From Ureaplasma parvum serovar 3 str. ATCC 27815 (GTDB lineage Bacteria > Bacillota_I > Bacilli_A > Mycoplasmatales > Mycoplasmoidaceae): a DNA stretch of 32,000 nucleotides. Location: the NCBI RefSeq assembly GCF_000019345.1, contig NC_010503.1:660001-692000 (forward strand), written 5' to 3'. Under the pieces are notes generated by a model. It was not told where the DNA came from and did not search any database. It saw only the letters and a program-made list of their open reading frames with translations. Positions 948 to 28,870 of this stretch are shown one piece after another (the stretch's first letter is position 1; the number at the start of each line of letters is the position of its first letter). Position numbers and translations under genes: made by a program.

Positions 948-1023
948 TGGCAAGGGTAACAGGACTCGAACCCGCAACACGCAGATTTGGAGTCTGCTGT
1001 TCTACCAATTGAACTATACCCTT
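948..1023 (-). tRNA. trnW: tRNA-Trp, anticodon CCA
   Basis: The 76-nt minus-strand sequence AAGGGTA TA GTTC AATTGGTA GAAC A GCAGA CTCCAAA TCTGC GTGTT GCGGG TTCGAGT CCTGT TACCCTT G CCA folds as a cloverleaf. The anticodon loop is CU-CCA-AA, the T-loop is TTCGAGT, the discriminator is G73 and the CCA end is encoded. Confidence 0.9.
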
Positions 1024-5914: not shown

Positions 5915-7231
5915 TTACTTAGCAAACAATGCACTTGCTTCAAATACACCAAATGGAGTGAAATAAAATTTAATCACGGCCAATGATATTAAAAATCCAA
6001 CGAGAATACACAAAATTCCAAATAAAGCATAATCTGCTAGGTTTAATGGAAAAGTACGATAACGTGTTCGTGCATAACGAGGGTTATAAGAACGTGCTTC
6101 CATAGCATTTGCTAAATCTTCTGCTTTTTTAAAAGCAATTGAAAATAATGGTACAACTAGTGAAATTAATGATTTTAATTTTTGAATAGGTCCGCCATTA
6201 TTAAAATCAACACCACGTGAAGCTTGTGCATTTAATATTCTTTTTGATTCATCTAATAATGACGGAATAAAACGTAATGCAATTGAAATCATCATTGAAG
6301 CCTCAGCAACAGGCAATCGTAAAATTTTAAAAGGACTTAACAAATCTTCCAAACCATTTGTCAATTCAATAGATGAAGTCGTAGCTGTTAGAATTGATGA
6401 TAAGGTTATCATTAAAAAAATTTTTATTGATATATAAACAGCTAATTGAATAGCAATAGGACTTAAAGCGAAAGGACTTCGTGTATAAAATAAAGCGGTT
6501 TGAGCCTTACCTAATTGATCACCTACACCTGACAAAATTAAACCTTGATATTTAATACCATTGATCTTTCATAAATTCGTTGACATATAATATGATAAAT
6601 GACTTAATGGCACTTCAAGTTTTCCAGATTTTAAGGTACTATTACCATAAATTGGATAAAAATTATTCAATCGAACATCTTGGTTTAACGCATTAAAAGT
6701 ACTTTCTAATTTTTTAACAGTTACGTTATTTTCATTTAAAAATTTAGCAACATTATAATCGGGTTTATCAATTAGTTTTTTAATAATCTCAGGACTAATA
6801 TAATTTTTAATTTCTCCACCTCAAATATTCGAAACTAAATTTTGGGGATGAGTTGATGAAATATCATTATAAAATAAATTAAATGATAAATTTCTATTAA
6901 TAGGACCATTAATTCAACTATTATTACCTAAAATTACTTTAGCTTGATCTGTGACATTATAAATAGCAATAGGATCTTTATATGTCATTCAATTAATAAG
7001 TAGTAGGATAATGAACAACATAACGACGGATTTAAAAACATTTCATAAAGTACGCTTAGGTAATTTAGCTACAAAAAAGACGATTAAAATAAAAATTCCA
7101 ATAATCATTTGCGCAAAAAAGCCAAGTGGTAAAAAAATCATAGCAATTAATAAAATAAAAGAAATAAATTTAATTGCTGGATTTAAACGATGAATTGGTG
7201 AACGTCGAAACACATAAGCATTAGCACTCAT
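5915..7231 (-). CDS. ecfT: ECF transporter transmembrane (T) component, 438 aa, with a large inserted loop
   Basis: Fragments 7043..7231 (MSANAYVFRRSPIHRLNP...) and 5915..6535 are in the same frame (1317 nt), and the gap contains only TGA codons. The C-terminal part has the EcfT coupling-helix ARG motifs (NAQASRGVDF and AMEARSY). It sits immediately downstream of two ecfA genes. Confidence 0.8.
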
Positions 7232-8533
7232 TTATTTTTCTCCTTTTTTAAATTCGATGATAGCATCTGCTAACTCTTCAATTGTGCGTGGTTGTTTTTG
7301 TTTTAGAATTTCATATTTAAGATCTTTTTTAATCAATTCATTAATAACTGCAATTACACGAGGAACTTGAATTGAAGTTGAATTAATAATGTGTTGATCA
7401 AAAAAAATTTCATAAGGTGTCCCTGTTTTAATAATTTCACCTTCATCCATTACAATCACTTCATCAGCAACTTCAAGCACATGTTCCATAGTATGGGTAA
7501 TAACAAAAACTGTTTTATTATTTGCTTTCGCATCTAAAATAATTTGCATCATTTCGTGTTCACCTGCAGGATCTAAACCAGCTGTTGGTTCATCAAAAAC
7601 TAAAATATCATTTTGGATTGCTAAAATTCCAGCAATTGCTACTCGGCGTTTTTGGCCTCCAGATAATCCAAAAGGTGAGCGTTCTAAATAATCATCTCCT
7701 AAACCTAATTTATTTAAATAAAATTTAGCTCGTTTTTTAGCTTCGCTTTTTTTTACACCTAAATTAACTGGACCAAACATGATGTCTTTTTCAATAGTAT
7801 CCTTAAACAATTGGTATTCAGGGAATTGGAATACAAAACCAACACGTCTACGTAATTCTTTAAACCGCTTTATTTTTTTTGATAAATGATAGTTCGTCTT
7901 AATTTCTTTTTTAATAAATTCAAAACGTTGTAACTCTTCATAATTCATCTTATCATTAATTTCTAATATAACATTTTTATCAACACGAACTACTGCTATT
8001 TTAGTGTTTTCTCTTACATAAGGATTTGTAATTAATTCATGATTATTTTTTGTTTTAATAAATTTTAAACTAATTGGTTTTTGTTTAAAATTTGCTTCAA
8101 ACAAAATCCGTGCTTGTTGAATATTAACTTCATTAGAAAATAAAACTAGAAAGGTCCATTGATCTAGTTGATTCCGTCATAATAAATTAATAATTTTTTT
8201 ATCATATGAATCAATCACTCCTAATAATTGGCGTTCAAAATCAAAATGATCACCAGAAACAATATCACCGACTTGAACGAAACCATAACGCGAGATCATT
8301 AATCCATTAAAATGAGTAACTAGCGTAGATTTACCAGAACCAGAATTTCCAATAATAAAATAGATTTTATTTTTTTTAAAATCATACGAAATATTATTTA
8401 ATGCGACTAATTGATTTTCTTGTTTTTCATCATAAACAGCATATAAATTTTTTACACGAACACTAATATCATTAGATATTGGTCGTGGTACTTTAAGTTT
8501 TCTTTTGAAAAAATAATCCATTAATTTTTGCAT
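7232..8533 (-). CDS. ecfA2: ECF transporter ATPase component A2, 433 aa, with an insertion between Walker A and the Q-loop
   Basis: Fragments 8177..8533 (Walker A GNSGSGKST) and 7232..8104 are in one frame joined by TGA. The second fragment carries the Q-loop VFQFPEYQLF, the signature LSGGQKRR, Walker B ILVFDEPTAGLD and the H-loop ITH. The stop abuts the ecfT start. Confidence 0.8.
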
Positions 8534-9405
8534 ATTTTTTCAATTAACTCCTCATTATTCAAAGTTAAATCAATTTTTAACCCCTTTTCCTTTAAGGTTT
8601 TTGCTAATTTTAATGTAAATGGAATATCTAATTGCATTTTTAATAAACGTTCTTCATTAGCAAAAATTTCTTGTGGTGTACCTATATATTGAACTTCGCC
8701 ATTTGACATGACAATAACTTTATCAGCTTTAACTACTTCTTCCATATCATGAGTAATAGAAATAATTGTTTTTTTTGCAACATCACGCAATGAAACCATT
8801 AATTCTTTTAATTCATTTTTTCCTTTGGGATCTAACATACTTGTGGATTCATCAAAAATAATCACTTTAGGATTAATTGCTAAAACAGAAGCAATTGCAA
8901 CTCTTTGTTTTTGACCGCCAGATAGTTCAAGTGATTCTTTTTTTAATAGATCTTCAATTCCCGTTGCAACAGCTGCATCATTAATAATATCTCACATTTT
9001 ATTTGGCGGAACCTTACGATTTTCTAAACCAAAAGCAATATCATCTTCAGCCGTAATACCTACAAATTGATTATCAGGATTCTGAAAAACAATTCCGATA
9101 TTATTTCGCAAATATTTTAAATTAGCAGCACTTATCTCAATTCCAAAAAGTTTAATTACACCGCTTTTAGGTTTTAATAATCCTGTTAAAACCTTAGATA
9201 TCGTTGATTTTCCAGAACCATTATGACCAATAACACAAACATATTCATTGTCATTAATTGTAAATGAAACATTTTTTAAAATCATTCGTTCTTCTGTATA
9301 AGCAAAATAAACATTTTCAAATTCAATGGCAACACTTGAATCATTAATAATCTTATCTAATGATGAAATTTGATAATTATGAGTATTTTTATCATTATGA
9401 CTCAT
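8521..9405 (-). CDS. ecfA1: ECF transporter ATPase component A1 (294 aa)
   Basis: Fragments 8992..9405 (Walker A GHNGSGKST and Q-loop VFQNPDNQF) and 8521..8865 (Walker B IIFDESTSMLD and ITH) share one frame. The gap encodes the LSGGQ region. An AAGGAG RBS is present. The gene overlaps the ecfA2 start by 13 nt. Confidence 0.85.
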
Positions 9406-10236: not shown

Positions 10237-10689
10237 TTAGTTACCTTTCTTTTCTTTATATGCACTTACGCCTTCAATTACAATTCCCATTTGTTTTGCA
10301 GAACCAGCAATCATTCTTAAAGCGGCTTCTTCATCATATGCTGTCATATCAATCAATTTATAACGAGCTATTTCTAAAGCTTGTTCTTTTGAAATTGTTG
10401 CAACAGTTTGCTTTTTAGGATCTTTGGCACCACTTTTGATTTTAGCAATATCTTTTAGTAAAAAAGTCACGGGAGTAGTTTTGATAACATAATCAAATGA
10501 TTTATCTTTATAAGCTGTAATAATTACTGGGATAACCTTACCGTTTTGGTCTTTAGTTTTATCATTAAATGACTTAGTAAACTCAGCCATATTAATACCA
10601 ACTGATGCTAATGCTGGACCAGGTTTAGCTTGTCCACCAATTAGATTTAACTTTGCGATTCTTGTAACTTCTTTCTTTTTAGGAGCCAC
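10237..10689 (-). CDS. rplK: 50S ribosomal protein L11
   Basis: The ORF has L11 hallmarks ([22 protein letters not shown]). I prefer the GTG start at 10689-10687, which lies 7 nt after AGAGGT. The TTG used by the ORF track at 10698 abuts the RBS. Start choice is uncertain by 3 codons. Confidence 0.9.
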
Positions 10690-10876: not shown

Positions 10877-10905
10877 TTGGTTTTAATGGTGAAGGATGGT
10901 ATAAT
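10877..10905 (+). promoter_or_regulatory. Promoter of the giant FtsX-domain gene
   Basis: TTGGTT (10877-10882), a 17-nt spacer, then TATAAT (10900-10905) preceded by TGg, an extended -10. A GGAG RBS sits at 10958-10961 before ATG 10968. Confidence 0.55.
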
Positions 10906-10967
10906 AATAAAATTATACTGATTTAAATAAACACAAGTTGTACATTTGTTTTTAGTTTGGAGTTAAT

Positions 10968-13900
10968 ATGAAAAAAATGTTTCTATTAATGAAGAATATG
11001 ATGCGTTTATTCTTTAAAAATAAAACTTTAGTAACTCAACTTTCAATTTTAATGATTGTTTCAACAGTTGTTATTGTTGCAACAACGATTACAGTACAAC
11101 GTTTGCAAAAATCACAAAGCGATATTAAAAAAATTGGTTTACAAAGTGATTTTTTAATTGATACAAAAGAGCAAGATAATATTAATTTCAACGAAATTGA
11201 CGTTAGCAACAATCTTGTAAAACATAATGAAAAATTAATTCAATTAGCAACTTTTAATCAAAATATTTTAAAAAATTCAAATAATTATTTACAACTAGTT
11301 GATAATGCATTTCATAATCATAACCTTTTTTGGCCAACTAATGTAAACAATCAAAAAATAGATGTACTAAATCTTGAAGGAAATATCGATTGAAATAAAA
11401 TTAATCAATTAAAATTACAAACTGTTTTTTGATTTGAAAACAATAAAGAAAATAATCAAAATTTTGCTAACAATTATGATGATTTGGTTTATGAATATCA
11501 TAATTCTAAAAATCAATTAGTAGGATTTCAAAATTTAGATGGTGGGCATATTTTATTTAAAACACCGGCGTTAAAATCAGCAAACGGTAATTATGAAACA
11601 ACATTTAAAATTAATGCTGCAATTGTCCAAAAAAATAAACCATTTAAATCTTTTTTTAACTTTGATAAATATAAAGAATTAGGATTTAAGAATAAATCTT
11701 ATTTTACAAATCCTGTATTAATTAAAAATATAGATCTTTATTCAAAACAAGTTGTTCAAACACTAAACGATCGTTCAAATCAATCAATTGATTTTAAAGA
11801 CTATCAAAGCACATTTCAAGCCATTGTTGATACACTTGAAACTAACACGATAAATAAAGATTTTTATAGTGTGAATTTACATGTTGATTTTAACACACTA
11901 TCAACAAAATACCTACTATTTGCTAATTATTTAAAAAATGAAGGTATTGATAAAAACCGTTATATAAATGAATTAAAAATCGATAACTATAAACAGAAGT
12001 ATTTAGATTTATTTCAAAACCAAGTTTTAATTCCAAAAGAATTAATTGACGATCCAAAAAAAATAGAAGAAGTGCAAAAAATTATTGCAAAAGCCAAAGC
12101 CTTGTTAATTGCTAAAATTCGTGAAGAAACAAATATTTTTTATGAAAACTCACAAAAATCAGCTCTTGAAAATAAAAATAAGATTCGTGATTATGAGATG
12201 CAATTAAAACAAATAAATATTGCTCTACAAAATTCGAATTATTCTAATAACGAACTTATTCAATTAAAAAATGAACAAAAAGTATTAGCAGCAAATCTCG
12301 ATCAAGCAAAATTTAAACACTTTTTATATAATGATTTAATTAAACAAGATTTCCGTTCGATTTTAAATAATTATAATATTTATTATCGCAAACATGAATC
12401 AGCAATTTATAATGATGTTAAAAGTGATTCAAATTTTATTGTCACAAATGCAAGCAATCCAACATATACACAAAACGGTTTAATTGCACCAAGAAATCAA
12501 TGAATTGATAATATGGTGCAAATTAATGAAAAAAATAAAAATAGTCAAAATCCAAATAAAAAATTTAAGCGAATTTTTATTAATGATGATAATTCAAATA
12601 AAATTAATAACTTTTATGACCTTTATTCAAATTACATTAAAGTCATTCAAATTTTAAAAAATAGTTATGAAAAAGATCCAGATACTGATAAAGATTTACT
12701 AGTTGAAGAGCGTGATTATACTCCTTGAATTAATACATCACTAATTAATATATATCAACTTCCACAATTTTTTAATATCTTATTTAATCAATCTGAATGA
12801 TTATTATCAATTCAATATCTAAAAGAAATGAGTGATTATAAAAAATATTTACTACAAATTTTTGAACCATATCAAGATAAAGAATGGATTTTTAATTTAA
12901 AACATAAAGATTGACAAGATGGCGAACAAGTGGTTGCTATTTATAAAAATGCAGATAGTAATAGCGACCAAAAAGAATATTATTTTAACGGCTATGTTAA
13001 AAATCAACGAGCTTATATTAATGTTAAATATAATAAAAATCTGCCAACACGTTTAAAATTAATTAATATTATTAAACAAAATCAAATAAATCAAAAAAAC
13101 AATTTAGTTAATGTTTTAGATCAAGATTTAAATGATTATGCAAAGATTATTAATTTTAAAAAAGGTATTAAAGATATTAATACAAACCAGCAATCAGTTT
13201 ATGATCAGTGAGCTTTAAATAATCCACAAGATTATGCTATGTTTAAAATTTGATTATCAAAAATCATTAAACGTTATTATTTTCTACGACTTCAGCAATC
13301 ACCTTATGGATATACAATTCAAGCACAAAACGTTTTATCAAAAGCTTTGTTATTGCCGTTTACAATTAATATTATTAATCGTAGTTCAGATCTAGCATAC
13401 GTAAGCACATCTTATATTAAAGCTAATCAAAGAACAACAAAAAATATAAATAATTATAAAGAAATTGGTAATTATGAAGATTTTTTACAAGCACTAAAAC
13501 TTCCATATCGTATAATCGATGATCAACCAAACTATCGTGAAATTACTTTGCCAAACGGTCGTAAAAAAAGAATTGCTAAAGATTATTATAGTTGAATTAA
13601 TTATGTTGTTAGCCCCGCTAATAAAATTGAAATTAACGGCCAATTCTTCTTTATTATTGGTGCTGTAGATAGTCCTGAATTTTTATTTCCAGCAATAAAT
13701 GACTCAGACATCTTAATTAATAAACAAAAATCAACTGTTTTATATGTTAATGATTCAGGTTTTGCTAAACTTAAAACTATTTCAGCAAGCGTGCCAATTT
13801 TAGAGTATTACACACTAAAAGTTAATACTAATGATCTTAATTTATTACAAAAAAATAATGTTTATAATGAAATAAAATCAGAATTATTAGATTCTAAAAA

Positions 13901-16900
13901 AGGTAACATATATAAGAGAACTGATAAGGATAACCCTTATCCAATTTATGTTAAACGAACCTTTTTTTTAACACAATTGAGGAATTTAATTATTGCAATT
14001 GCACTTAGTTTGATTGTTTTAATCTTATTGTTAGGAATCTACTTTGTTACCTCAAGTATTAAAAATATGATTAATAAAAACAAAGTCATGTTCGGTGCTA
14101 TGCAAGCTCAAGGCGTATCAAGATGACAAGTTTGATTTTCATTCGCTCCTTTTTATACAATTCCTTCTTTAATTGTTTTAATTATTGGTTATAGTATATC
14201 TTATGAAATTCAACCCTTAATTATGCGTTTATTTAGCTCATATTGATTAATTCCTATCCCAGACCAATTTGTTAGTGTTGGTTGAATTTTTGCTATTCCA
14301 ATTGCTTTAACATTAATTTTAGGCTTTATTTGCTGGGTGTTAATTTATTATATTTTAAAACATTCAACCGCAGAGACAATGAAAGGCGATGCAGGTTTTA
14401 AAATCAATAAATTTATCATTAAAACAAAAGCAATCTTTTTAAAATTTGGTGCAATTCGAGTTTTAAAAGCTACTTATGTTGTTGCCAATTTAGCAAGAAT
14501 GTTGATTTTATTAGTAATCGCTTCCTCTTTTTCTATTATTGCTTCTATTATTGCAACAACAAAAAATAATTTTAGTCAGTCAGCAAGTATTACTAATGCT
14601 AAACGTGAATATCAATATGCAGTTGATTTATATTCACCAACAGAACAGGGAGGATTTTATTACATTTCAAAGTTTGATGAAATGGGTGTTTCTAATGAAT
14701 ATGCTCCTTTAAAACAAATTGTTAAAAATGTTAAGATTGTAATTAAAATTAAAAATTTAGTTAATAAAAAAGTCAATGTTGTATATATCAATAATCAAAC
14801 AAAGCAAAAAGTAATTATTGAAGCACTTATTAATGATAAGGGAATAATCACTTTTAAAACTAATCAGCTTGTTAAAGGTAGTTTTCAATTTGAAGGTATT
14901 TATGAACAAGAAACAAATAGAGTTTTAATTAATTCACAAAATTTAAATCCATCATTATTAAATATAGATAATCGAAAGATAGGCCATTTTATTTACTCTA
15001 ATCAAAAACAATATATCTATTTACTAAAATCATACTTTAATGACAATGATGTAATTTTAGATTATGTTGATGCTAATAATCAACATACTTATTTAAAAGC
15101 AAAAACTCTAGGTCAATACTTGGTATTTGATCCTTCACAATTAAAACAAAAACAAAAATATCAATTAGTTAATGTTATAAACCATAAAGGAAATACATGA
15201 GTTGATTTAAATAATATAAGTAATGATTTAAAAAATTTGGATTATTCCAAAAATGGACGTTATTTATATGATTATTATGGAAGATTACCATATTTATACT
15301 TTAATCATTTACCACAAAATCTAATTAACCAAAAAGTTTATTTGACTTATACAATTAACCAAAATGATGAATTTCGAATTTATGGTATTGTTAATAAAGA
15401 AAAAGAAGTAGTTTTTGACTTAACAAAATTAAAAATTAATACCCAACAAAGTTATCAATTACGCGATATGCGAATCGCAAATAGTGATTTATTAATTTAT
15501 GATAATAAACAACATGAATTTAATAATAATATTTTATATTTTGATAACAATTATTACGGTTTAAACAATAATAATCAAAAGCAAATTAATATTGATTACT
15601 TAACTCCTAATCGTAATCTTTATTTAACTTTAAAAGCAATGGGTAATGAATTTGTTAATAAGAAAAAAATACCTTTTATAATGACAAAAGCAATGGCTTC
15701 TTTAGTTGAACCTGATACTGCAATTTTAGATTATAATGAATTAGAAAAGGGTTATGTTTATCAAATTAGTACAGCAACACTAGAGGGTAGTGATACAAAC
15801 TTATACTTAGATAACGTTAATTCTATTGATAAAACAAAAGATAATGGCTTACCTTATTCGTCTCTAAAATACAATAACGCAATGCGTGAAATTAAAAATT
15901 TAGGTACTGATCATCCAGTCTATGGCAAAATGTTATCAAATGTTTATTATCCATCAATTAGTACCCAACCTGAAATCTTACAAAATATTCGTTTTTTTGA
16001 TAGTAAAGTAATTTCAAAAAGTTCTTTAGATGGAAATATTAGTGTTAAAGCAACGGATGTTAACATTGAATTTAACCCTTGAGTTTTTGCAAAAACTTTC
16101 TTACCTATCACAGCAATAGCTCGATCAGAACTAAATGAAAAACACTTATTAGATGAAGCATTTAAAACTTTTGGTTATGAAATTATTAATGGTAAAAAAA
16201 TCAATAAATTATATGATGTTCCTAACTTTGAAGATAATGGTATTATTCATCAAATATCATTATGAACAAAAAATGGTTTACCACCTAAAAGTGAAAATGA
16301 TGAAAATGCTTTCTTTATAAAACAAAATGGGCAATGGAAAATCAATGAAAAACCAGGCGTGTTAACAGAGCAGGGCGCCGCAGAATTCTTACCAGAATTT
16401 TTACGTTTAATTACTCAAATGTACACCTTCAAAACAACTCGTTATTTACAATATAAAGCCGGTTTAAAATTTGTTAATATTGAAGATGAAAAAGTACAAC
16501 AACCATATACATACTTATTAGGTAAAATGCAAACAAAAACAAAAAGATTTGCTAATGAAATTAAAATATTGGGTATTAATTATGAAAAAAATAAATTTAT
16601 TAATGGAAAACCAAGTCCTACTACTCAACTAAGTTTGATAAATGATCAGGGTGTTAATTTAATTGATCTAATTAAAAATGATGATCCTAATAATGAGATT
16701 CACAACATTATTATTAATAAAGTTGTCGCCCAAAAATATCATTTAAAGATTAATGATGTTTTTGAATATCAAATTAATAATCACATCAAACGTCTATCAA
16801 ATAAATTTAATAACACACCAGAGAATTATAAAACTAAGTTTAAAGTTGTTGGGATTAATGATAGTTTAATGGATGAGCAATTAATTATTAATCAAAAAGT

Positions 16901-17759
16901 TGCAAATAAACTAATTGGTTTTGATGATTATCGCCGTCGGATTCAAATCGAAAATGGTTATCCAATCATTGAAGAACGCGAGTTCAATGGATTCTTTACA
17001 AAAGAAAAAGAACCTATTTTCTTTAATAATATGGCTTCATTTTATTCACCTACTGGACTATCACCAGCAATTGATTCATGACCACAAAATTTATTAGAAA
17101 ATATTGGTGGTAATGTTCAAAGCATTAATATTTACTGAATTTTTTATTACAGTTGAGATTTAGCTAATTCGATTTTAAATGCTAGTTTCGATAAAAATAA
17201 AATTACTTGAGAACCTTTTTCAGAAATTAATTTAGATAAATTATTAAAGAAAATAGGAAAAATTTTTGGAAAAGAAGCTAATTTACCATCATTTAAAGCA
17301 GTTGATGCTAATATTGAAAACGAAATATTTGCTTCAGTAGTTGATAAAACATCATTTACATTATTATTAAATATCATTACTGCTATTATTCCATCACTTG
17401 TCATTATTATTATTCTAGTAGCTTCAACACTAGCTAATGAATCACGGCGTTTAATTGCTATTATGAAAGTATTAGGAATGCGTGATTTTAGAAATGTTAA
17501 TAATTTTATGTTTATTTATCCAATCGTATGATTATTAAATATTCTTATTGCTACACCGCTTTCTTTTGGAATTATTCATATTTATAAATTAGCAATCTTT
17601 GCTGCTTTTAATATTGTTTTAGTAGCTTCTATCCCTTGATGAATCTTTGTAATTAGTTATGGTTTTGTCGGGATTGTATTATTATTTGCTTGATTACAAA
17701 TGTTATATAAAACAAAAAAACTAAATTTACCAAAAGCTTTAAACCAATTTAATAATTAA
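10968..17759 (+). CDS. Giant (2263 aa) membrane protein with two FtsX/MacB-type permease domains and two extracytoplasmic domains of roughly 950 aa each
   Basis: Nine ORF-track fragments (10968, 11484, 12513, 12930, 13347, 13791, 14337, 15237 and 16359) plus the tail to TAA 17757-17759 are all in frame 0. They are separated only by TGA codons, for example at 11391, 12501, 13209, 14124, 15198, 16080, 17079, 17136, 17154 and 17208. There is an N-terminal TM helix at about 11030-11100. FtsX block 1 lies at about 13955-14390 (FGAMQAQGVSRWQV), with an extra TM helix at about 14470-14560. FtsX block 2 lies at about 17385-17700 (IAIMKVLGMRDFRNV). Confidence 0.75.
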
Positions 17760-17790
17760 AAAGACGGCCGTAAAGACCGTCTTTTTTTTA
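17757..17790. terminator. Bidirectional rho-independent terminator between the convergent giant gene and gatB
   Basis: A GC-containing stem pairs AAGACGG (17761-17767) with CCGTCTT (17777-17783). A T8 run follows on the plus strand, and the A-run on the other side gives a T-run on the minus strand. Confidence 0.7.
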
Positions 17791-17807: not shown

Positions 17808-19241
17808 TTATTTTTGTAAGATTTTTTTTAAAACATTAAAAGAAATGGTTGGATTCGCTTGTGCTTTAGTTAATTTCATTATTTCACCCATAAAAAATTT
17901 TTCAACACGGTCGGGGCGTTCATTGTATTGTAATAACATTTCTTGATTCTTAGCTAAAATTTGATGTCAAAGTTTAGTAATTTCATTTTCATTAGTAATT
18001 TGCTCAAAACCTAATTCCTTAATTAGAATTTGAGGATCTTTATTTGTCAAATAAATTTTTTCTAAAATTATTTTTGTTTGTTTTCCATTAATCAAAGTTT
18101 GATCAAATAATAAGATCATTCTAGCAATTTTTTGCAATAATTCTGGTGTAATTTCTTCAATGTTTTGCGTATTTTTATTAATTAGACCAATAAATTCCAA
18201 ACATAATCATTTATAAACACTTAAAGGATTATTAACAATTTTGTCTACATATTTAAATGCTTTAAACAACGGTCCATCACTTAATAACTGTTCGATAGCA
18301 GAACTAACTAAACCTTTTTGTGCTAGTTGTTGACGCAAATCATTAATACTACATGATTTAGTTAAAAACATTTTTTTTACATAATCATCACTTAGATGAA
18401 TTGGTGCAATATTTGCTTCACGAATATAGCGATAATTAATAGCATCATTTTTTGAACGCATAAAAACCGTTGTATTCGTATTATCATCAAAACGTCGTGT
18501 TTGTTGTTCAACATTCTGATTTAGTAAAATTAAATTTAATTGACGTCTTATCTCATAATCAATAGCTTTAGCAACATTTGAAATAGAATTAATATTTTTA
18601 ATTTCTACTTTTGTGCCAAATTTTTTAGCCCCTTGAGGTCTAATTGAAACGTTTACATCAACACGTAATGATCCATCTTCCATTTTTGCATCTGATATAT
18701 CATTAAACAATAAAATTTTTCGCAATTCTTCTAAAAATAAAACCGTCTCTTGTGCACTTCGTAAATCTGCTTCACTAACGATTTCAATTAAAGGTCATCC
18801 TGCACGGTTATAATCTAAATATATTTGATTACCTATATTAGTTTGTTTGGCTGTATCTTCTTCTAAATGAATTTGTTTGATACGTATTCGTTTTAAATTA
18901 TTATATTCATCAATGATTTGAATATAACCATTCTGACCTATTGGAAAATAATTTTGTGTAATTTGATATCCTTTAGGTAAGTCTAAATAATAATAATGCT
19001 TACGATCAAAAGCAATAAATTGATGATTAGTACGCATGTGTAATGCATTTGCTAAAAAAAGTCCTTTATGAACAACTTCTTGATTAACAGTTGGTAATGT
19101 ACCTGGCAATGCTAAATCAATTTCATTAATTAAAGTGTTAGGAATACTCTTATGCGATGTTGCTGCATTAGAAAACATTTTGGTTTTTGTATTAAGTGCA
19201 GTATGCACTTCAATACCAATAATAACTTCAAAATTTTGCAT
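17808..19241 (-). CDS. gatB: Asp/Glu-tRNA(Asn/Gln) amidotransferase subunit B (477 aa)
   Basis: Fragments 18795..19241 (MQNFEVIIGIEVHTALNTKTKMF...), 18207..18725 and 17967..18200 plus the tail to TAA 17810-17808 are one frame joined by TGA. The gene is adjacent to gatA and gatC. Confidence 0.9.
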
Positions 19242-20971: not shown

Positions 20972-21988
20972 TTAGTCAACATGAATTGGAATATGTTTAT
21001 CCTCAACAATATCATCTTCATAATCATAACGAATTAAAGGAACAACAATTTTAAAAATTGGATAAATAATCAATAAGTTTAAAACCACCATTGGAATAAA
21101 TAAAACAGCACGAATTGATAATCATTGTGTATATTTTAGACTTGATAATTCAGCATCAAACGATGGCATCATTAGTACATTAACCACTGCTTCAGTTAGT
21201 AAAATTGTTACTAAAACAGGGGCAAATATAATGAATCAATTTGTTTTGGTTTTAGCTTTATTTTTTTTATTGAATCAATATTTTATCAATAAACTAAACC
21301 AAACAACGATAATTGATAATAAGAAAAAACCTAAAATAATGCCAATCATCAATGTTCGTGCAATTTTAATATCAAAACCAAATAATTGAATATTAAAACC
21401 CTTATCACCAATTCCTGGAGCAAAATATAAAAATAAGGCAATTCCTACACCAATTAAAATAGTTGCCATTGAACTATAAATTGCAAATGGTAAATCCTTT
21501 TTTTTGGAAGTAGTTAGAATAATTCGAATTAGTCCTCCAATTAATCCATAAGCCATAGCAGCAATTAAATAACCATAATGAAATACACCAGCAGTCATAG
21601 CCACAGATAATAAATCAGTCATTGCACCAATAAAAATACCTAAAATTGGACCAAATAATAAACCTCCAATTTTAATAAGAATCCCTTCTAAAGTAACACG
21701 TGTACCTGGTCAAGCACGAAAAATTACAGAAGCTGTGTTAGCTGATAAAACTGTTAATAATATAATCACTGCAACAGAAATCGAAATCACCATAGCAATA
21801 TTTGAAATCCCTTTAACCGAAGTTTTAGGAATAATATAAAAACGCTTTTGAAAACGAATTGAATAATAGATTTTTTTAATAACTGTAAAGATAATAAAAA
21901 CAATCAAAAATGCTAAAAAAATTAAAATTGATTGTCATGAATTAATTCCATTACCTTGTGAAGTATTAGTTGTATGTAATACACTCAT
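20972..21988 (-). CDS. Polytopic membrane protein resembling an ECF-transporter substrate-specific (S) component, 338 aa
   Basis: ATG 21988-21986 through fragments 21710..21907 and 21275..21622 to TAA 20974-20972 is one frame with TGA codons. It has multiple hydrophobic helices. The segments KTSVKGISNIAMVISISVAVIILL and LEGILIKIGGLLFGPILGIFIGAMTDLL resemble the conserved helix 1 and the LxGPxxG region of ECF S components. Confidence 0.5.
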
Positions 21989-22026: not shown

Positions 22027-22665
22027 TTATCATTTTATTGGAGTGCGTAAATGTTTAATTAAATAATCATTGCATTTACTAAAATGTTTACAAGTTAAAA
22101 AACCACGATGTGCACTTAATGGCGAAGGATGTGAAGCACATAAAATTAAATTTTGTTTTTGATCAATCAAATTAATGTAACTCATAGCTTGTTTTCCTCA
22201 TAATAAATAAACAACATGCTTTTGTTTTCTAAGTTCGTTAAACACATTTTTAATTAATTCTTCATAACCAAAATTTTTATGCGAATTTGGTTGATGAGCG
22301 TTAACAGTTAAAACAGTATTCAACAATAAAACTCCTTGTTTTGCCCAATCAGACAAATCAGGGTTTGTTCTTTTTATTTGTAAATCATATTCTAAAGCTT
22401 TAAAAATATTGATTAGTGATCCTGGTAAATTATTTCCTAAATCCACACTAAAACACAAACCATTAGCTATTTTAGGTGTATGGTATGGATCTTGCCCTAA
22501 AATAACAACTTTAGTTTGTTCAATATCAAAAAAATCAAAACATCTAAACCGTTGTTTTTTTAAAGGAAAAACTACTTGATGATTCTCGATGTTGTTGATT
22601 TTTTTAATAATATTTTTTAAATAACTTTGTTTAGTTTCATTAATTATGAATTCTTTTCATTTCAT
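22027..22665 (-). CDS. ung: Uracil-DNA glycosylase (family 1)
   Basis: The frame runs from ATG 22665-22663 ([16 protein letters not shown]...) through fragment 22198..22458 to TAA 22029-22027. The motifs [15 protein letters not shown] and HPSPLSA are all present. Confidence 0.9.
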
Positions 22666-24410
22666 TTGCTATAGTTAACATTTACACTTTTAATTTCATT
22701 AAGGTTAAAAAGATATTTTCTAAAATTATTCTTAGCAGCTTTAAAACTAGTCAAATTATGAATATTAGCATCCTTATTTTCTAAAGCAATCATTGCTAAT
22801 TGCGAATATGATTGTTTTGATAAAATTTGGTTGTTTTCAGGGTTAGTAACAGGTAAAATAGTACGAGAATTGTTAGATGCTTTAATTGCTTCAACAAATT
22901 TGCGTGATTTGATGAAATCATCTATTTTTAATTCATTGATCTTTTTTTCACCTAAGAAAGCATATGGATAAACACCATTTAGACCACGATCATGTTCATA
23001 ATATTGTCAGTCTTCAAGTTTTTTATCTTCAACATACTCTTTTTTATTAACTTTAGCTTCGTTTTTTAATTCTTGTTTTAAATCGCGGCCCAAAATACTA
23101 AACGCATGAATTTTAGATAATGTACCTGTGTAGTATTCATTATAAACAGTTGTACGTTTTTTCTCTGTCTCAGTTAACCCTGTTTTTTGATTTTTAATTT
23201 TTAAAAAATTTTCTTGAAGAGTTTGTGTTGCTTTTTGATTAATATTAGCAGAACGCATTGTTGATGGTGCAAAATTAACTACCATATCTTTTAATGGAAT
23301 TTCATAAACTAAATTACGAATTTCTGGTTTGTGATCATCATGAATTTCAGCATAAGTTTTTTTATCAACACTTGATAAAGCAGCGTTAATTGAACTAAGT
23401 GCATTTAGTTGACTACCATTAGAACTAGCTTCCATAAATGATCCAGCTTTTTTGTTTGAAGAGTTATATCAAGCATATTGTAATTTAATATTTTTTAAAC
23501 GTACAAGAACATTTTTTAAACTTGGATTAACTAATAATTCATCATTTACTTTAACACCAAAATTAGGTTTATTAATACTTAAACCTGTAATTGCATCTAC
23601 ATATTCTCAATCAAAACTAAAATTATATAAAGCAAGTTTGTATGTATGTTTACCTGCACCTACACCTTGTACTAAAGCTAATAAAAATTCTTTAGCAACT
23701 TCGTTTTTTAACCCTTTAAAAAGTTCAAAATCTTTATTTGAATGGTTATTAAATGCATGTTCTGCTAATCATTTTATTAATTGATCTGTCATAGAGGTAA
23801 TATAAGTATACAATCCATCACTAATAACTAAAGAGTTGATTAATTCACTAACCTTATTTATTTTTGTTAATTCATCACTTGAATATAGTTTTTGGTTAAA
23901 AACAGTTTGTTTTTTTGTTTGGTCAAGAATTTCTAAATTATTAGCATATTTACTTGTTGAATCAAAATTTAACTTATTACCAATTAAACGAATCAATTCA
24001 TTTTGCAAAATACTCAAATCAATTGGTGTTAGTTTAGTTGAACTTGATAAACTTTTTGTTCAAACTTCTTTTTTGGGAACCAAATAACCAAATTGATCGA
24101 TTTCTTTATTGTTTTTATCAAAGCGTTTATTATCTTTAACACTCGTATAAGTTAAATCACCTGCCGCATAATAAACATCATCTAATAAATTTTGATTCTC
24201 AAAAATCATTTCATGTTTTTGATTCTTACCTTCAAAGGCTCGAATTTTAATTTTACCAATATTATTAGTTGTAGCATTAGCACTAACATAATGAACATTA
24301 ACTTGAGGATGAGCAGCTGCTGAACACGATGCAGCAACAATTGGCGTTAATCCAATAAAACTAATTCCTAATATTGAAAAAATTAGCTTTTTACTTTTGT
24401 TTTTTTTCAT
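22644..24410 (-). CDS. Lipoprotein of unknown function (588 aa)
   Basis: Fragments 24060..24410, 23769..24017 and 23007..23435 share one frame joined by TGA. The frame stops at TAA 22646-22644. The N-terminus [29 protein letters not shown] has a basic n-region, a hydrophobic core and a lipobox cysteine. I recognise no catalytic motif. Confidence 0.7.
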
Positions 24411-28457: not shown

Positions 28458-28870
28458 TGGTGGAGATGAGGGGAGTCGAACCCCTTTCCGCAACACATAA
28501 TTAATAATATCTACAGTTTAGTTTTATTAAAAATAGTGTAGTTAATAACTAATAAAACAAATTTAAAATTAACTAACTATTTGTTAAATCTATTTAAATT
28601 TAAACAACAAATAAGAATTTTAAATTTAAAACTATTGTAAAATAAGCCCAAAAACCAACCAATAGTAATTATGTTAATGAACGTTTCTACTAATAACTAA
28701 TTAGTACGCAAAAGCGTAGTTTGCATTAGTAGCTGAAGCCATAAACGCTGGGTTTAATTCTACTTCAGAAGATTTTTTATTTTCTGCATTTAAAATGCCT
28801 CGAAAGCGATAAGGGGCTAACCCCACTGCAATTAAAAATTAATGTGTCACGTCGAAACCGTGACATCCCC
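28458..28870 (-). ncRNA. ssrA: tmRNA (SsrA), 413 nt
   Basis: The minus-strand 5' end is GGGGATGTCACGGTTTCGACGTGAC... and the 3' end is ...GGGGTTCGACTCCCCTCATCTCCACCA, a tRNA-Ala-like acceptor and T-arm. The internal tag ORF starts at resume codon GCA (28787-28785) and ends at TAA (28703-28701). It encodes AENKKSSEVELNPAFMASATNANYAFAY. Confidence 0.9.

Follow-up and report, generated by a model that had tools for sequence, protein, structure and literature searches.

The window analysed here comprises 32,000 nucleotides (nt) of the genome of Ureaplasma parvum serovar 3 str. ATCC 27815 (contig NC_010503.1, positions 660,001 to 692,000) and contains a 6.8-kb gene, at 10968-17759 on the plus strand, for a giant permease of 2263 amino acids (aa). 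On the strength of homology over two conserved cores, eight predicted transmembrane (TM) segments and two large ectodomains, the protein belongs to the family of fused tandem-FtsX permeases typified by MG468 of Mycoplasma genitalium. It probably serves as the membrane component of an ATP-binding cassette (ABC) system of type VII (MacB/FtsX-type), with both half-permeases in one chain and a MacB-type ATPase that is encoded separately. In type VII ABC systems, mechanical work is performed beyond the cytoplasmic membrane. What kind of machine is this permease, and where is its motor?

The identity of the gene is no discovery. The RefSeq name is "FtsX-like permease family protein [Ureaplasma parvum]", the entry WP_042467196.1 differs from the window protein at two residues, and databases have listed the family ever since the genome of M. 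genitalium. The initial annotation of the window, which put the gene forward as its best candidate for uncharacterised biology, was therefore wrong to treat it as unrecognised, given the RefSeq name and the MG468 homologue. The wider question, which is not specific to this locus, concerns the biology of machines whose ectodomains have reached 500-1800 residues in wall-less, single-membrane bacteria.

An intact gene for a tandem-FtsX permease

Read with genetic code table 4, frame +0 of the gene has only its terminal stop (2263 codons followed by TAA); under table 11 the same stretch has 25 stops, and the other five frames each contain 93-262 table-4 stops. Among the 24 in-frame TGA codons, 14 stand opposite Trp in all six aligned Ureaplasma orthologues and several more opposite Tyr or Phe, which argues that TGA is read as Trp and that the open reading frame (ORF) is genuine. 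So long an ORF cannot be of chance origin at the 26.5% G+C of the window. Compared with U. urealyticum, the ratio of non-synonymous to synonymous substitution rates (dN/dS) is 0.108 over the whole length, with 0.056 for the FtsX blocks and 0.13-0.18 for the lineage-specific parts of the ectodomains, and judged by these values the gene is under purifying selection. The stop counts, the conservation of Trp at TGA codons and the dN/dS ratio together led to the table-11 and pseudogene readings of the window gene being dropped, and they uphold the uninterrupted table-4 gene that had been proposed at the outset.

Hydropathy predicts a 1+3+1+3 topology for the eight TM segments, in which TM1 is followed by a first ectodomain (ECD1) and TM2-4 and then, after a cytoplasmic linker, TM5 is followed by a second ectodomain (ECD2) and TM6-8. 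The plan of one TM helix, an ectodomain of about 950 aa and a three-TM FtsX block is thus seen twice in tandem, as the initial annotation had described it. Both three-helix blocks score as FtsX: Pfam family PF02687 matches in two stretches (72.7 bits against a cut-off of 25.5, E 3.4e-20), and the blocks are related to one another by hhalign (probability 96%, E 4.5e-9), with BLASTP of half 1 against half 2 giving a marginal match in the FtsX block alone (E 0.08). The Pfam scan of the protein found no nucleotide-binding domain (NBD) fused to the permease, and an NCBIfam scan of the whole protein gave no match. A permease of the ten-TM BceAB or YbbP type was considered and rejected in view of the eight hydrophobic segments and the two ectodomains of equal size after TM1 and TM5.

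FtsX block 2 is the best-conserved part of the protein (identity 0.68-0.77); the N-terminal segment with TM1 has a mean identity of 0.68 across the six orthologues, and the linker with TM5 one of 0.63-0.70 across the genus. The cytoplasmic loop between TM6 and TM7 contains the canonical FtsX-family coupling-helix motif NESRRLIAIMKVLG, of which the TM2-TM3 loop has a divergent version, and a glycine in each loop (G1049 and G2170) is invariant in a 35-sequence alignment of the family. By analogy with the structures of MacB and LolCDE, both loops would be expected to have a coupling role. Structural models place an unbroken helix at aa 19-57 (low confidence) and helices of 52 and 55 residues through TM5 (aa 1162-1213) and TM6; the latter two, from a model of low confidence, are consistent with a MacB-type stalk.

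Conservation and family

Intact orthologues of 2223-2265 aa are present in seven other Ureaplasma species. Their identity to the window protein is 85% in U. urealyticum, 48% in U. diversum and 40% in both U. miroungigenitalium and U. zalophigenitalium, and further orthologues are found in U. canigenitalium and Ureaplasma sp. ES3154-GEN. When a profile of the second half was compared with 1.84 billion representative proteins, only 190 relatives were recovered. Among the 149 matches listed, 104 are 1227-3631 aa long (median 1520), the longest with a confirmed FtsX architecture has 2730 aa, and the named family members are mollicutes throughout. These include MG468 ("Uncharacterized ABC transporter permease MG468", 1783 aa), whose representative matches the profile at E 4.2e-18, and a 2514-aa protein of Mycoplasmopsis agassizii. 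Word-index protein searches were hampered by low-complexity mollicute words and returned 8 and 9 matches. The check on conservation that the initial annotation had proposed thus yields orthologues across Ureaplasma and homologues in Mycoplasma.

A full-length Ureaplasma profile (hmmsearch) delimits two family-wide cores. The first (hmm ~750-1240) covers the end of ECD1, FtsX block 1, the linker, TM5 and the start of ECD2, and the second (~1650-2257) the final 330-480 aa of ECD2 together with FtsX block 2. The eight-TM plan is also found in MG468, in a 2730-aa M. zalophi protein and in two metagenomic relatives, with ectodomains of roughly 550-1780 aa. Since all of these have the same plan, giant ectodomains are the norm in the family; the initial annotation was right about the two ectodomains of about 950 aa, but their size is a family rule and not peculiar to this gene. 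FtsX domains, topology and family membership all agree with its reading of the protein as a tandem-FtsX (MacB-type) permease.

The ectodomains

The ectodomains combine family-wide and lineage-specific parts. In ECD1, residues 45-750 have relatives in Ureaplasma only and residues ~750-1003 are conserved across the family; in ECD2, residues 1240-1650 align within Ureaplasma only. A Pfam scan of ECD1 fragments gave no match. A 306-aa fragment of ECD2 contains three stretches of DUF1410 (PF07198; E 4.5e-20, 72.2 bits against a cut-off of 25.5), for which the U. urealyticum orthologue has a precomputed match. This region forms beta strands in the model and has a weak fold likeness, which is not significant, to the tandem-repeat adhesin regions 6xi3 and 7dm0. 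The whole-protein hmmscan (2263 aa) listed FtsX alone, and DUF1410, with no other domain beside it, emerged from the fragment scans only; because a 72-bit match was missed in this way, a mollicute protein of great length and biased composition should be scanned piecewise. The repeats in ECD2 tie DUF1410, an orphan domain, to an extracellular location.

A 3631-aa Mycoplasmopsis canis protein among the matches (P0082) has no FtsX match; it is a DUF1410-repeat protein and was rejected as a member of the family. As it bears 12 copies, DUF1410 is not confined to Ureaplasma, and on its distribution the domain looks like a mobile extracellular repeat module.

AlphaFold2 models of the two halves were built from nine sequences, with a mean predicted local distance difference test score (pLDDT) of 52 for the second half and 49.5 for the first. 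Foldseek comparison of the second-half model, in which the aligned query residues are not specified, returned at E < 1e-3 only type VII ABC permeases and their periplasmic domains, namely full-length LolC/LolE (best 6e-7), the isolated LolE/LolC periplasmic domains (5udf, 6f3z) and Spr0695; the isolated LolC, LolE and YknZ ectodomains match at probability 1.0. Between 1e-3 and 1e-2 it returned MacB, HrtB, YbbP, the YknZ ectodomain (5f9q) and BceB. A sequence search of the Protein Data Bank (PDB) with the Ureaplasma-only profile gave no match, and with the 35-sequence family profile it gave weak ones to MacB (5gko, E 0.004) and LolC (E 0.085). The model thus suggests, with low confidence, a MacB/LolC-type fold in the second half, and the family-conserved part of ECD2 (aa ~1650-2130) may hold a fold resembling the MacB-type periplasmic core. 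Three residues of its best-modelled alpha/beta subdomain (N1917, N1938 and R1942) are invariant in the family. In the Ureaplasma-specific part of ECD1 the sole moderately confident element is a predicted helix of about 60 residues that folds back on a second helix, and it has no significant structural match. The initial annotation recognised nothing in the ectodomains; this stands for ECD1, which gave no Pfam match and no significant fold match, but not for ECD2 with its DUF1410 repeats and low-confidence likeness to LolC/LolE/MacB.

The ATPase partner

In Mycoplasma a MacB-type ATPase gene adjoins that of the homologous permease in nine of nine loci, in many cases with an overlap of stop and start codons. 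For instance, in M. zalophi the gene for the 2730-aa homologue is followed by one for a 288-aa ATPase, with the stop and start codons overlapping, and the best solved relatives of this ATPase are a pneumococcal ABC ATPase (5xu1), the MacB NBD, MJ0796, BceA, YtrE, LolD and YbbA. The same adjacency is seen in M. synoviae, where the permease has 2626 aa, and in all six further Mycoplasma loci that came from scanning the genome collection for the generic ATPase motif TLLN[LI][IM]S[GA]LD (at least 600 matches, mostly in unrelated bacteria). In M. genitalium, two ABC ATPases flank MG468, one of 284 aa upstream and one of 311 aa downstream, and the upstream one is MacB-type by its PDB matches. All stretches common to the ATPases of M. 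genitalium, M. zalophi and two divergent mycoplasmas are generic ABC motifs, and a protein search with the ATPase (7993 matches) found none from Ureaplasma among the 120 listed, all of which apparently come from Hominis-group mycoplasmas.

Both ATPases that flank MG468 are ~36% identical to the single M. zalophi ATPase, which suggests, from sequence comparison, a heterodimeric motor in the Pneumoniae group as against one ATPase gene in the Hominis group, where it lies before or after that of the permease. Two distant metagenomic relatives of the permease (P0007 and P0008; 2257 and 1746 aa) have no adjoining ATPase gene, though one of the contigs ends just downstream, and unlinked permease genes may thus not be unique to Ureaplasma.

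For U. parvum itself a candidate comes from published orthology tables. Pereyre et al. (2009) equate MHO_3520, the M. hominis ATPase whose gene adjoins MHO_3530 ("ABC transporter permease"), with MG468.1/MG065/MPN081 and with U. parvum UU118 ("ABC-1"), which sits between tyrS (UU117) and secA (UU119) (PMC2751442). The entries ABC-2 to ABC-5 belong elsewhere, to UU510 (the MG390 orthologue), UU515 (iron, with fatC) and UU538/UU539 (Ecf), such that UU118 is the only one of ABC-1 to ABC-5 without an assigned system (PMC2751442). The orthologues of UU118 in M. zalophi and M. genitalium are MacB-type by their best PDB matches. By this best-hit table and by elimination, UU118 would be the candidate for the unlinked ATPase partner, and probably the U. 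parvum genome encodes the motor of the permease away from the locus. The "orphan" status that the initial annotation gave to the permease holds for the locus, where no cognate ATPase gene was found, whether adjacent, fused or overlapping; it probably does not hold for the system, as relatives have an adjacent ATPase and UU118 is listed as an unlinked orthologue. The status would thus reflect how genes are arranged within a single genus and not the lack of a component. Because the permease and its probable ATPase are unlinked in Ureaplasma, operon-based annotation will miss the pair.

The split gene in the ATCC 700970 record

In the record of U. parvum ATCC 700970 from the year 2000 the permease appears as two ORFs, UU542 and UU543 (cluster members AAF30955.1 and AAF30956.1). 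UU542 ("unique hypothetical", 808 aa) matches aa 1-775 of the window protein and then runs out of frame, and UU543 ("conserved hypothetical", 1413 aa) matches aa 858-2263. The two are separated by a 1-nt deletion, which may be either a sequencing error or a mutation of the strain. Fragments of 183 aa and 1962 aa occur in further U. parvum records, and the full length of 2263 aa is found in 8 of the 15 listed members of a 59-member U. parvum cluster. The initial annotation had held that frameshifts or true stops would make the gene a pseudogene; the frame is intact here and in most strains, but is broken in the ATCC 700970 record. The orthology tables give UU542, UU543 and MG468 as "no ortholog" (PMC2751442), an outcome that follows from the splitting of the gene by the frameshift. 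Annotation as UU542 plus UU543 is thus a frameshift artefact or a strain mutation, and it hid the gene from orthology tables.

The literature search found no paper on the permease gene, UU118, UU542 or UU543, no Ureaplasma proteomics or transposon data that mention the permease, and nothing on FtsX permeases in JCVI-syn3.

Proposed mechanism and alternative readings

How might such a protein work? We infer that a dimer of a separately encoded MacB-type ATPase, for which UU118 is the candidate, would bind the permease at its two conserved coupling loops in the cytoplasm, and that the effect of ATP binding and hydrolysis would reach the ectodomains by mechanotransmission along the long TM1/TM2 and TM5/TM6 helices. 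The strongest constraint falls on the cytoplasmic loops and FtsX blocks (dN/dS 0.056), as expected if an ATPase still docks there. Work would be performed outside the cell or in the outer leaflet, and not as carriage of a solute through a pore. As a best guess, offered with low confidence, the task might be to expel or remove molecules that are membrane-active or attached to the surface, for example antimicrobial peptides, drugs, lipids or lipoproteins, with the Ureaplasma-specific inserts, including the DUF1410 repeats, perhaps forming a projecting or host-facing module.

Several observations weigh against this picture of a permease driven by a separate ATPase. Within 10 kb on either side of the gene no MacB-type ATPase gene is found in six Ureaplasma species, namely U. 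parvum, U. urealyticum, U. miroungigenitalium, U. zalophigenitalium, U. diversum (~3 kb downstream only) and U. canigenitalium. A metagenome-assembled genome (MAG) labelled "Ureaplasma sp.", where the permease has 1478 aa and its gene comes after rplK-rplA on one strand, likewise has no adjoining ATPase gene. The MacB-type nature of UU118 and its pairing with the permease come from the published best-hit table and elimination. The search for MacB_PCD (PF12704) that the initial annotation had proposed came back empty for both ectodomains even at E <= 10, and hhalign detects no relation between the ectodomain cores of the two halves. Both half-protein models are poor, and that of the first half has no significant fold match and hence allows no fold assignment for ECD1. 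Moreover, the sole experimental claim near the family, which concerns MPN_080 of M. pneumoniae, is indirect and linked to it only by a MacB-like description.

That claim lies behind the suggestion that the permease is specifically a MacB-like macrolide efflux pump, as its relatives are often labelled in studies of resistance in mycoplasmas. A paper from 2026 argues, on indirect evidence, that macrolide resistance can be determined by MPN_080, an ABC-transporter permease that is called MacB-like: overexpression of a variant MPN_080 allele is reported to have raised the minimum inhibitory concentration of erythromycin in M. pneumoniae, and the authors themselves call for direct confirmation of efflux (PMC13118816). 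An "MG468 homolog" is also counted among the efflux genes of M. iowae (PMC13089696), and in the low-confidence model the second half has a fold resembling that of MacB. However, small-molecule efflux does not explain repeat-bearing ectodomains of ~950 aa, there is no partner of the MacA or TolC type in an organism that lacks an outer membrane, and MacB-type systems are mechanotransmitters of diverse roles (Lol, FtsEX, BceAB and HrtBA). A dedicated macrolide pump is therefore considered improbable. The same verdict, unlikely, applies to a surface protein that operates independently of any ATPase, using its FtsX helices as an anchor and its ectodomains as a passive adhesin, antigen or scaffold. 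Such a role would sit well with the lack of an adjoining ATPase gene in every Ureaplasma species examined, with the deployment of DUF1410 repeats in the FtsX-less 3631-aa M. canis protein, and with the Ureaplasma-specific parts of the ectodomains being the fastest-evolving (dN/dS 0.13-0.18). Yet it is the FtsX blocks, cytoplasmic loops and linker, including G1049 and G2170, that are most constrained, none of which a mere anchor needs; homologues in other mollicutes also retain an adjoining ATPase, and there is a candidate ATPase in the genome. A bolder proposal, which we regard as doubtful, is that the ectodomains make of the MacB-type motor an undescribed kind of ATP-driven extracellular machine, the unlinked ATPase being a Ureaplasma-specific regulatory rewiring. 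If true, such a machine might extract lipids or sterols from host membranes, rid the cell surface of bound host proteins or antimicrobial peptides, or power the conformational display of surface modules.

Two further readings have much less to commend them. That the gene is decaying or dispensable, and effectively a pseudogene in some U. parvum strains, could be argued from the split in ATCC 700970 (UU542/UU543) and from the fragments of 183 aa and 1962 aa in other records, but the gene is intact in the window, in 8 of the 15 listed cluster members and in seven other species, has a dN/dS of 0.108, and is split by a single-base deletion in a genome sequenced in 2000, possibly through sequencing error; decay is thus very unlikely. 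Energisation of the permease by EcfA1 and EcfA2 of the energy-coupling factor (ECF) module (7232-9405, minus strand) can be given almost no credence. The block ecfT-ecfA2-ecfA1-rplA-rplK does lie divergently upstream of the permease gene in five Ureaplasma species, but the linkage is with rplK-rplA and not with ecf, given that in U. diversum the permease gene has a different setting, free of ecf genes in the 10 kb upstream, and that the MAG locus lists rplK, rplA and FtsX on one strand without them. Moreover, UU538/UU539 are the cbiO1/cbiO2 ECF ATPase orthologues, located beside their own EcfT, and ECF ATPases dock on EcfT, which has a fold unlike that of FtsX.

Comparison with known systems

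The closest counterparts of the Ureaplasma permease are its homologues MG468 and the M. zalophi (2730 aa) and M. synoviae (2626 aa) proteins, with the same single-chain 1+3+1+3 plan, two very large ectodomains and the same cores; MHO_3530 of M. hominis is likened to them by annotation and position. With respect to the MG468 family, the Ureaplasma protein is set apart by its lineage-specific parts (aa 45-750 and 1240-1650) and by an ATPase gene that does not adjoin it. The likeness to MacB lies in the four-helix TM unit of FtsX type, the large domain between TM1 and TM2, the fold matches to 5lil and 5nik, and the resemblance of the ATPases beside the Mycoplasma homologues to the MacB NBD. MacB, however, is a homodimer of half-transporters with fused NBDs and periplasmic domains of ~200 aa that works with MacA and TolC across two membranes, whereas the Ureaplasma permease has no fused NBD, both halves in one chain, ectodomains that are 4-5 times larger and a single membrane to serve.

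The best structural matches of the low-confidence model are to full-length LolC and LolE and to the periplasmic domains of the two in isolation (E 6e-7 to 4e-4), and LolCDE also offers a parallel in that two non-identical FtsX-type halves work with a separate ATPase, as LolC-LolE do with LolD2. The difference is that LolC and LolE are separate proteins of ~400 aa, and that a wall-less cell with one membrane offers no counterpart to their task of passing lipoproteins to LolA, bound for the outer membrane. YbbAP, BceAB, HrtBA, YknXYZ and Spr0693-0695 resemble the proposed arrangement as type VII systems with a separately encoded MacB-type ATPase, and all of them were recovered in the fold search (9ge6, 8g3a/7tcg, 7w78, 5f9q and 5xu1), and their ATPases in the sequence searches. 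YbbP and BceB are single chains with two FtsX modules, but they have ten TM helices and one main ectodomain of ~200 aa, between TM7 and TM8, in contrast to the eight TM helices and two ~950-aa ectodomains of the Ureaplasma permease. With the DUF1410 repeat proteins it has in common the three above-threshold repeats in ECD2, set against the 12 repeats without an FtsX match in M. canis. An FtsEX-type context is not apparent, since no ftsE adjoins the permease gene in the window. Moreover, Ureaplasma has no peptidoglycan, and the hydrolase-activating role of FtsEX therefore has no target.

Features of the gene and its surroundings

Table 1. Features of the permease gene and protein, in coordinates of the window.
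Feature	Position	Strand	Basis or remarks
Extended -10 element TGgTATAAT	10897..10905	+	Read directly; 62 nt upstream of ATG; no -35 element
Ribosome-binding site GGAG	10959..10962	+	5 nt ahead of start codon
Coding sequence	10968..17759	+	Code 4, 24 TGA = Trp; intact form of UU542+UU543; FtsX-like permease family protein
N-terminal cytoplasmic amphipathic segment (aa 1-23) and TM1 (aa ~24-44)	10968..11099	+	Hydropathy
ECD1 (aa ~45-1003)	11100..13976	+	Hydropathy; comparison with orthologues and family
Predicted long alpha-helical hairpin in ECD1 (aa ~363-449)	12054..12314	+	DSSP: H363-421, H427-449; pLDDT 62-82
Base C, first base of codon 775 (CTT)	13290	+	Missing in ATCC 700970 record, giving the frameshift
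FtsX block 1, TM2-TM4 (aa ~1004-1130)	13977..14357	+	Pfam best stretch aa 1014-1127; hydropathy
TM2-TM3 cytoplasmic loop, putative coupling helix (aa 1036-1055) INKNKVMFGAMQAQGVSRWQ	14073..14132	+	Sequence
Cytoplasmic linker (~40 aa, aa ~1131-1169) and TM5 (aa ~1170-1196)	14358..14555	+	Hydropathy
ECD2 (aa ~1197-2130)	14556..17357	+	Hydropathy; comparison with orthologues and family
Three DUF1410 (PF07198) repeats (aa ~1235-1540)	14670..15587	+	Pfam scan of fragment; predicted beta-rich
Family-conserved C-terminal part of ECD2 (aa ~1650-2130)	15915..17357	+	Matched in MG468 and ~100 other family members
Best-modelled alpha/beta subdomain (aa ~1839-1989)	16482..16934	+	pLDDT 70-86; motif IIINKVVAQKYHLKINDVF...KFKVVGI
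FtsX block 2, TM6-TM8 (aa ~2131-2247)	17358..17708	+	Second Pfam FtsX stretch; hydropathy
TM6-TM7 cytoplasmic loop (aa 2157-2176) NESRRLIAIMKVLGMRDFRN	17436..17495	+	Sequence
Intrinsic terminator	17758..17789	+	Hairpin with 10-bp stem (17758-17786), then U8; just past stop codon

The gene has expression signals of its own (Table 1), as the initial annotation had stated for its promoter and strong terminator, and all of them are conserved in U. urealyticum. The promoter block ATGnTATAATAATAAAATTAT is conserved there and the ribosome-binding stretch TTTAGTTTGGAGTTAATATGAAAAA is identical; the extended -10 element was not listed by a sigma-70 consensus scan, which demands a -35 element. Promoters of M. 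iowae have been described as lacking pronounced -35 boxes (PMC13089696). The terminator hairpin has a folding energy of -12.7 kcal/mol (z -3.3), with none of 200 shuffled sequences equally stable, and its pairing is preserved in U. urealyticum through compensatory changes, although a terminator consensus scan missed it. In view of an A-run upstream of the hairpin, the convergent gatB may also be terminated there.

The neighbours, like every other detail of the initial description that was checked, are as first stated, with rplK divergent upstream (10237-10689, minus strand) and gatB convergent downstream (17808-19241, minus strand), and EcfA1 and EcfA2 are the only ABC ATPases within the window. 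For rplK, a GTG start at 10689, and not the first ATG, gives a 150-aa product, as called in U. urealyticum, and a divergent intergenic region of 278 nt. The linkage of permease, rplK and rplA in divergent orientation is kept in five Ureaplasma species, with the permease gene lying away from rplK-rplA in U. diversum, and the downstream neighbour varies among species (gatB, thrS or rpsP).

Elsewhere in the window, a gene at 22644-24410 (minus strand) encodes a 588-aa protein with a lipoprotein-type signal, and near it, at 20972-21988 (minus strand), lies one for a multi-pass membrane protein of 338 aa; no Pfam match is on record for either counterpart in U. urealyticum. The ECF module at 5915-8533 (minus strand) looks enlarged, with an EcfA2 of 433 aa in which the ABC_tran match falls in two pieces, and an EcfT of 438 aa, which is long for a CbiQ-family protein; these lengths suggest that EcfA2 and EcfT carry sizeable insertions. 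A tRNA-Trp gene with anticodon CCA is present at 948-1023 (minus strand), and no UGA-reading tRNA-Trp(UCA) was found within the 32,000 nt. The tmRNA gene at 28458-28870 (minus strand) specifies the tag peptide AENKKSSEVELNPAFMASATNANYAFAY.

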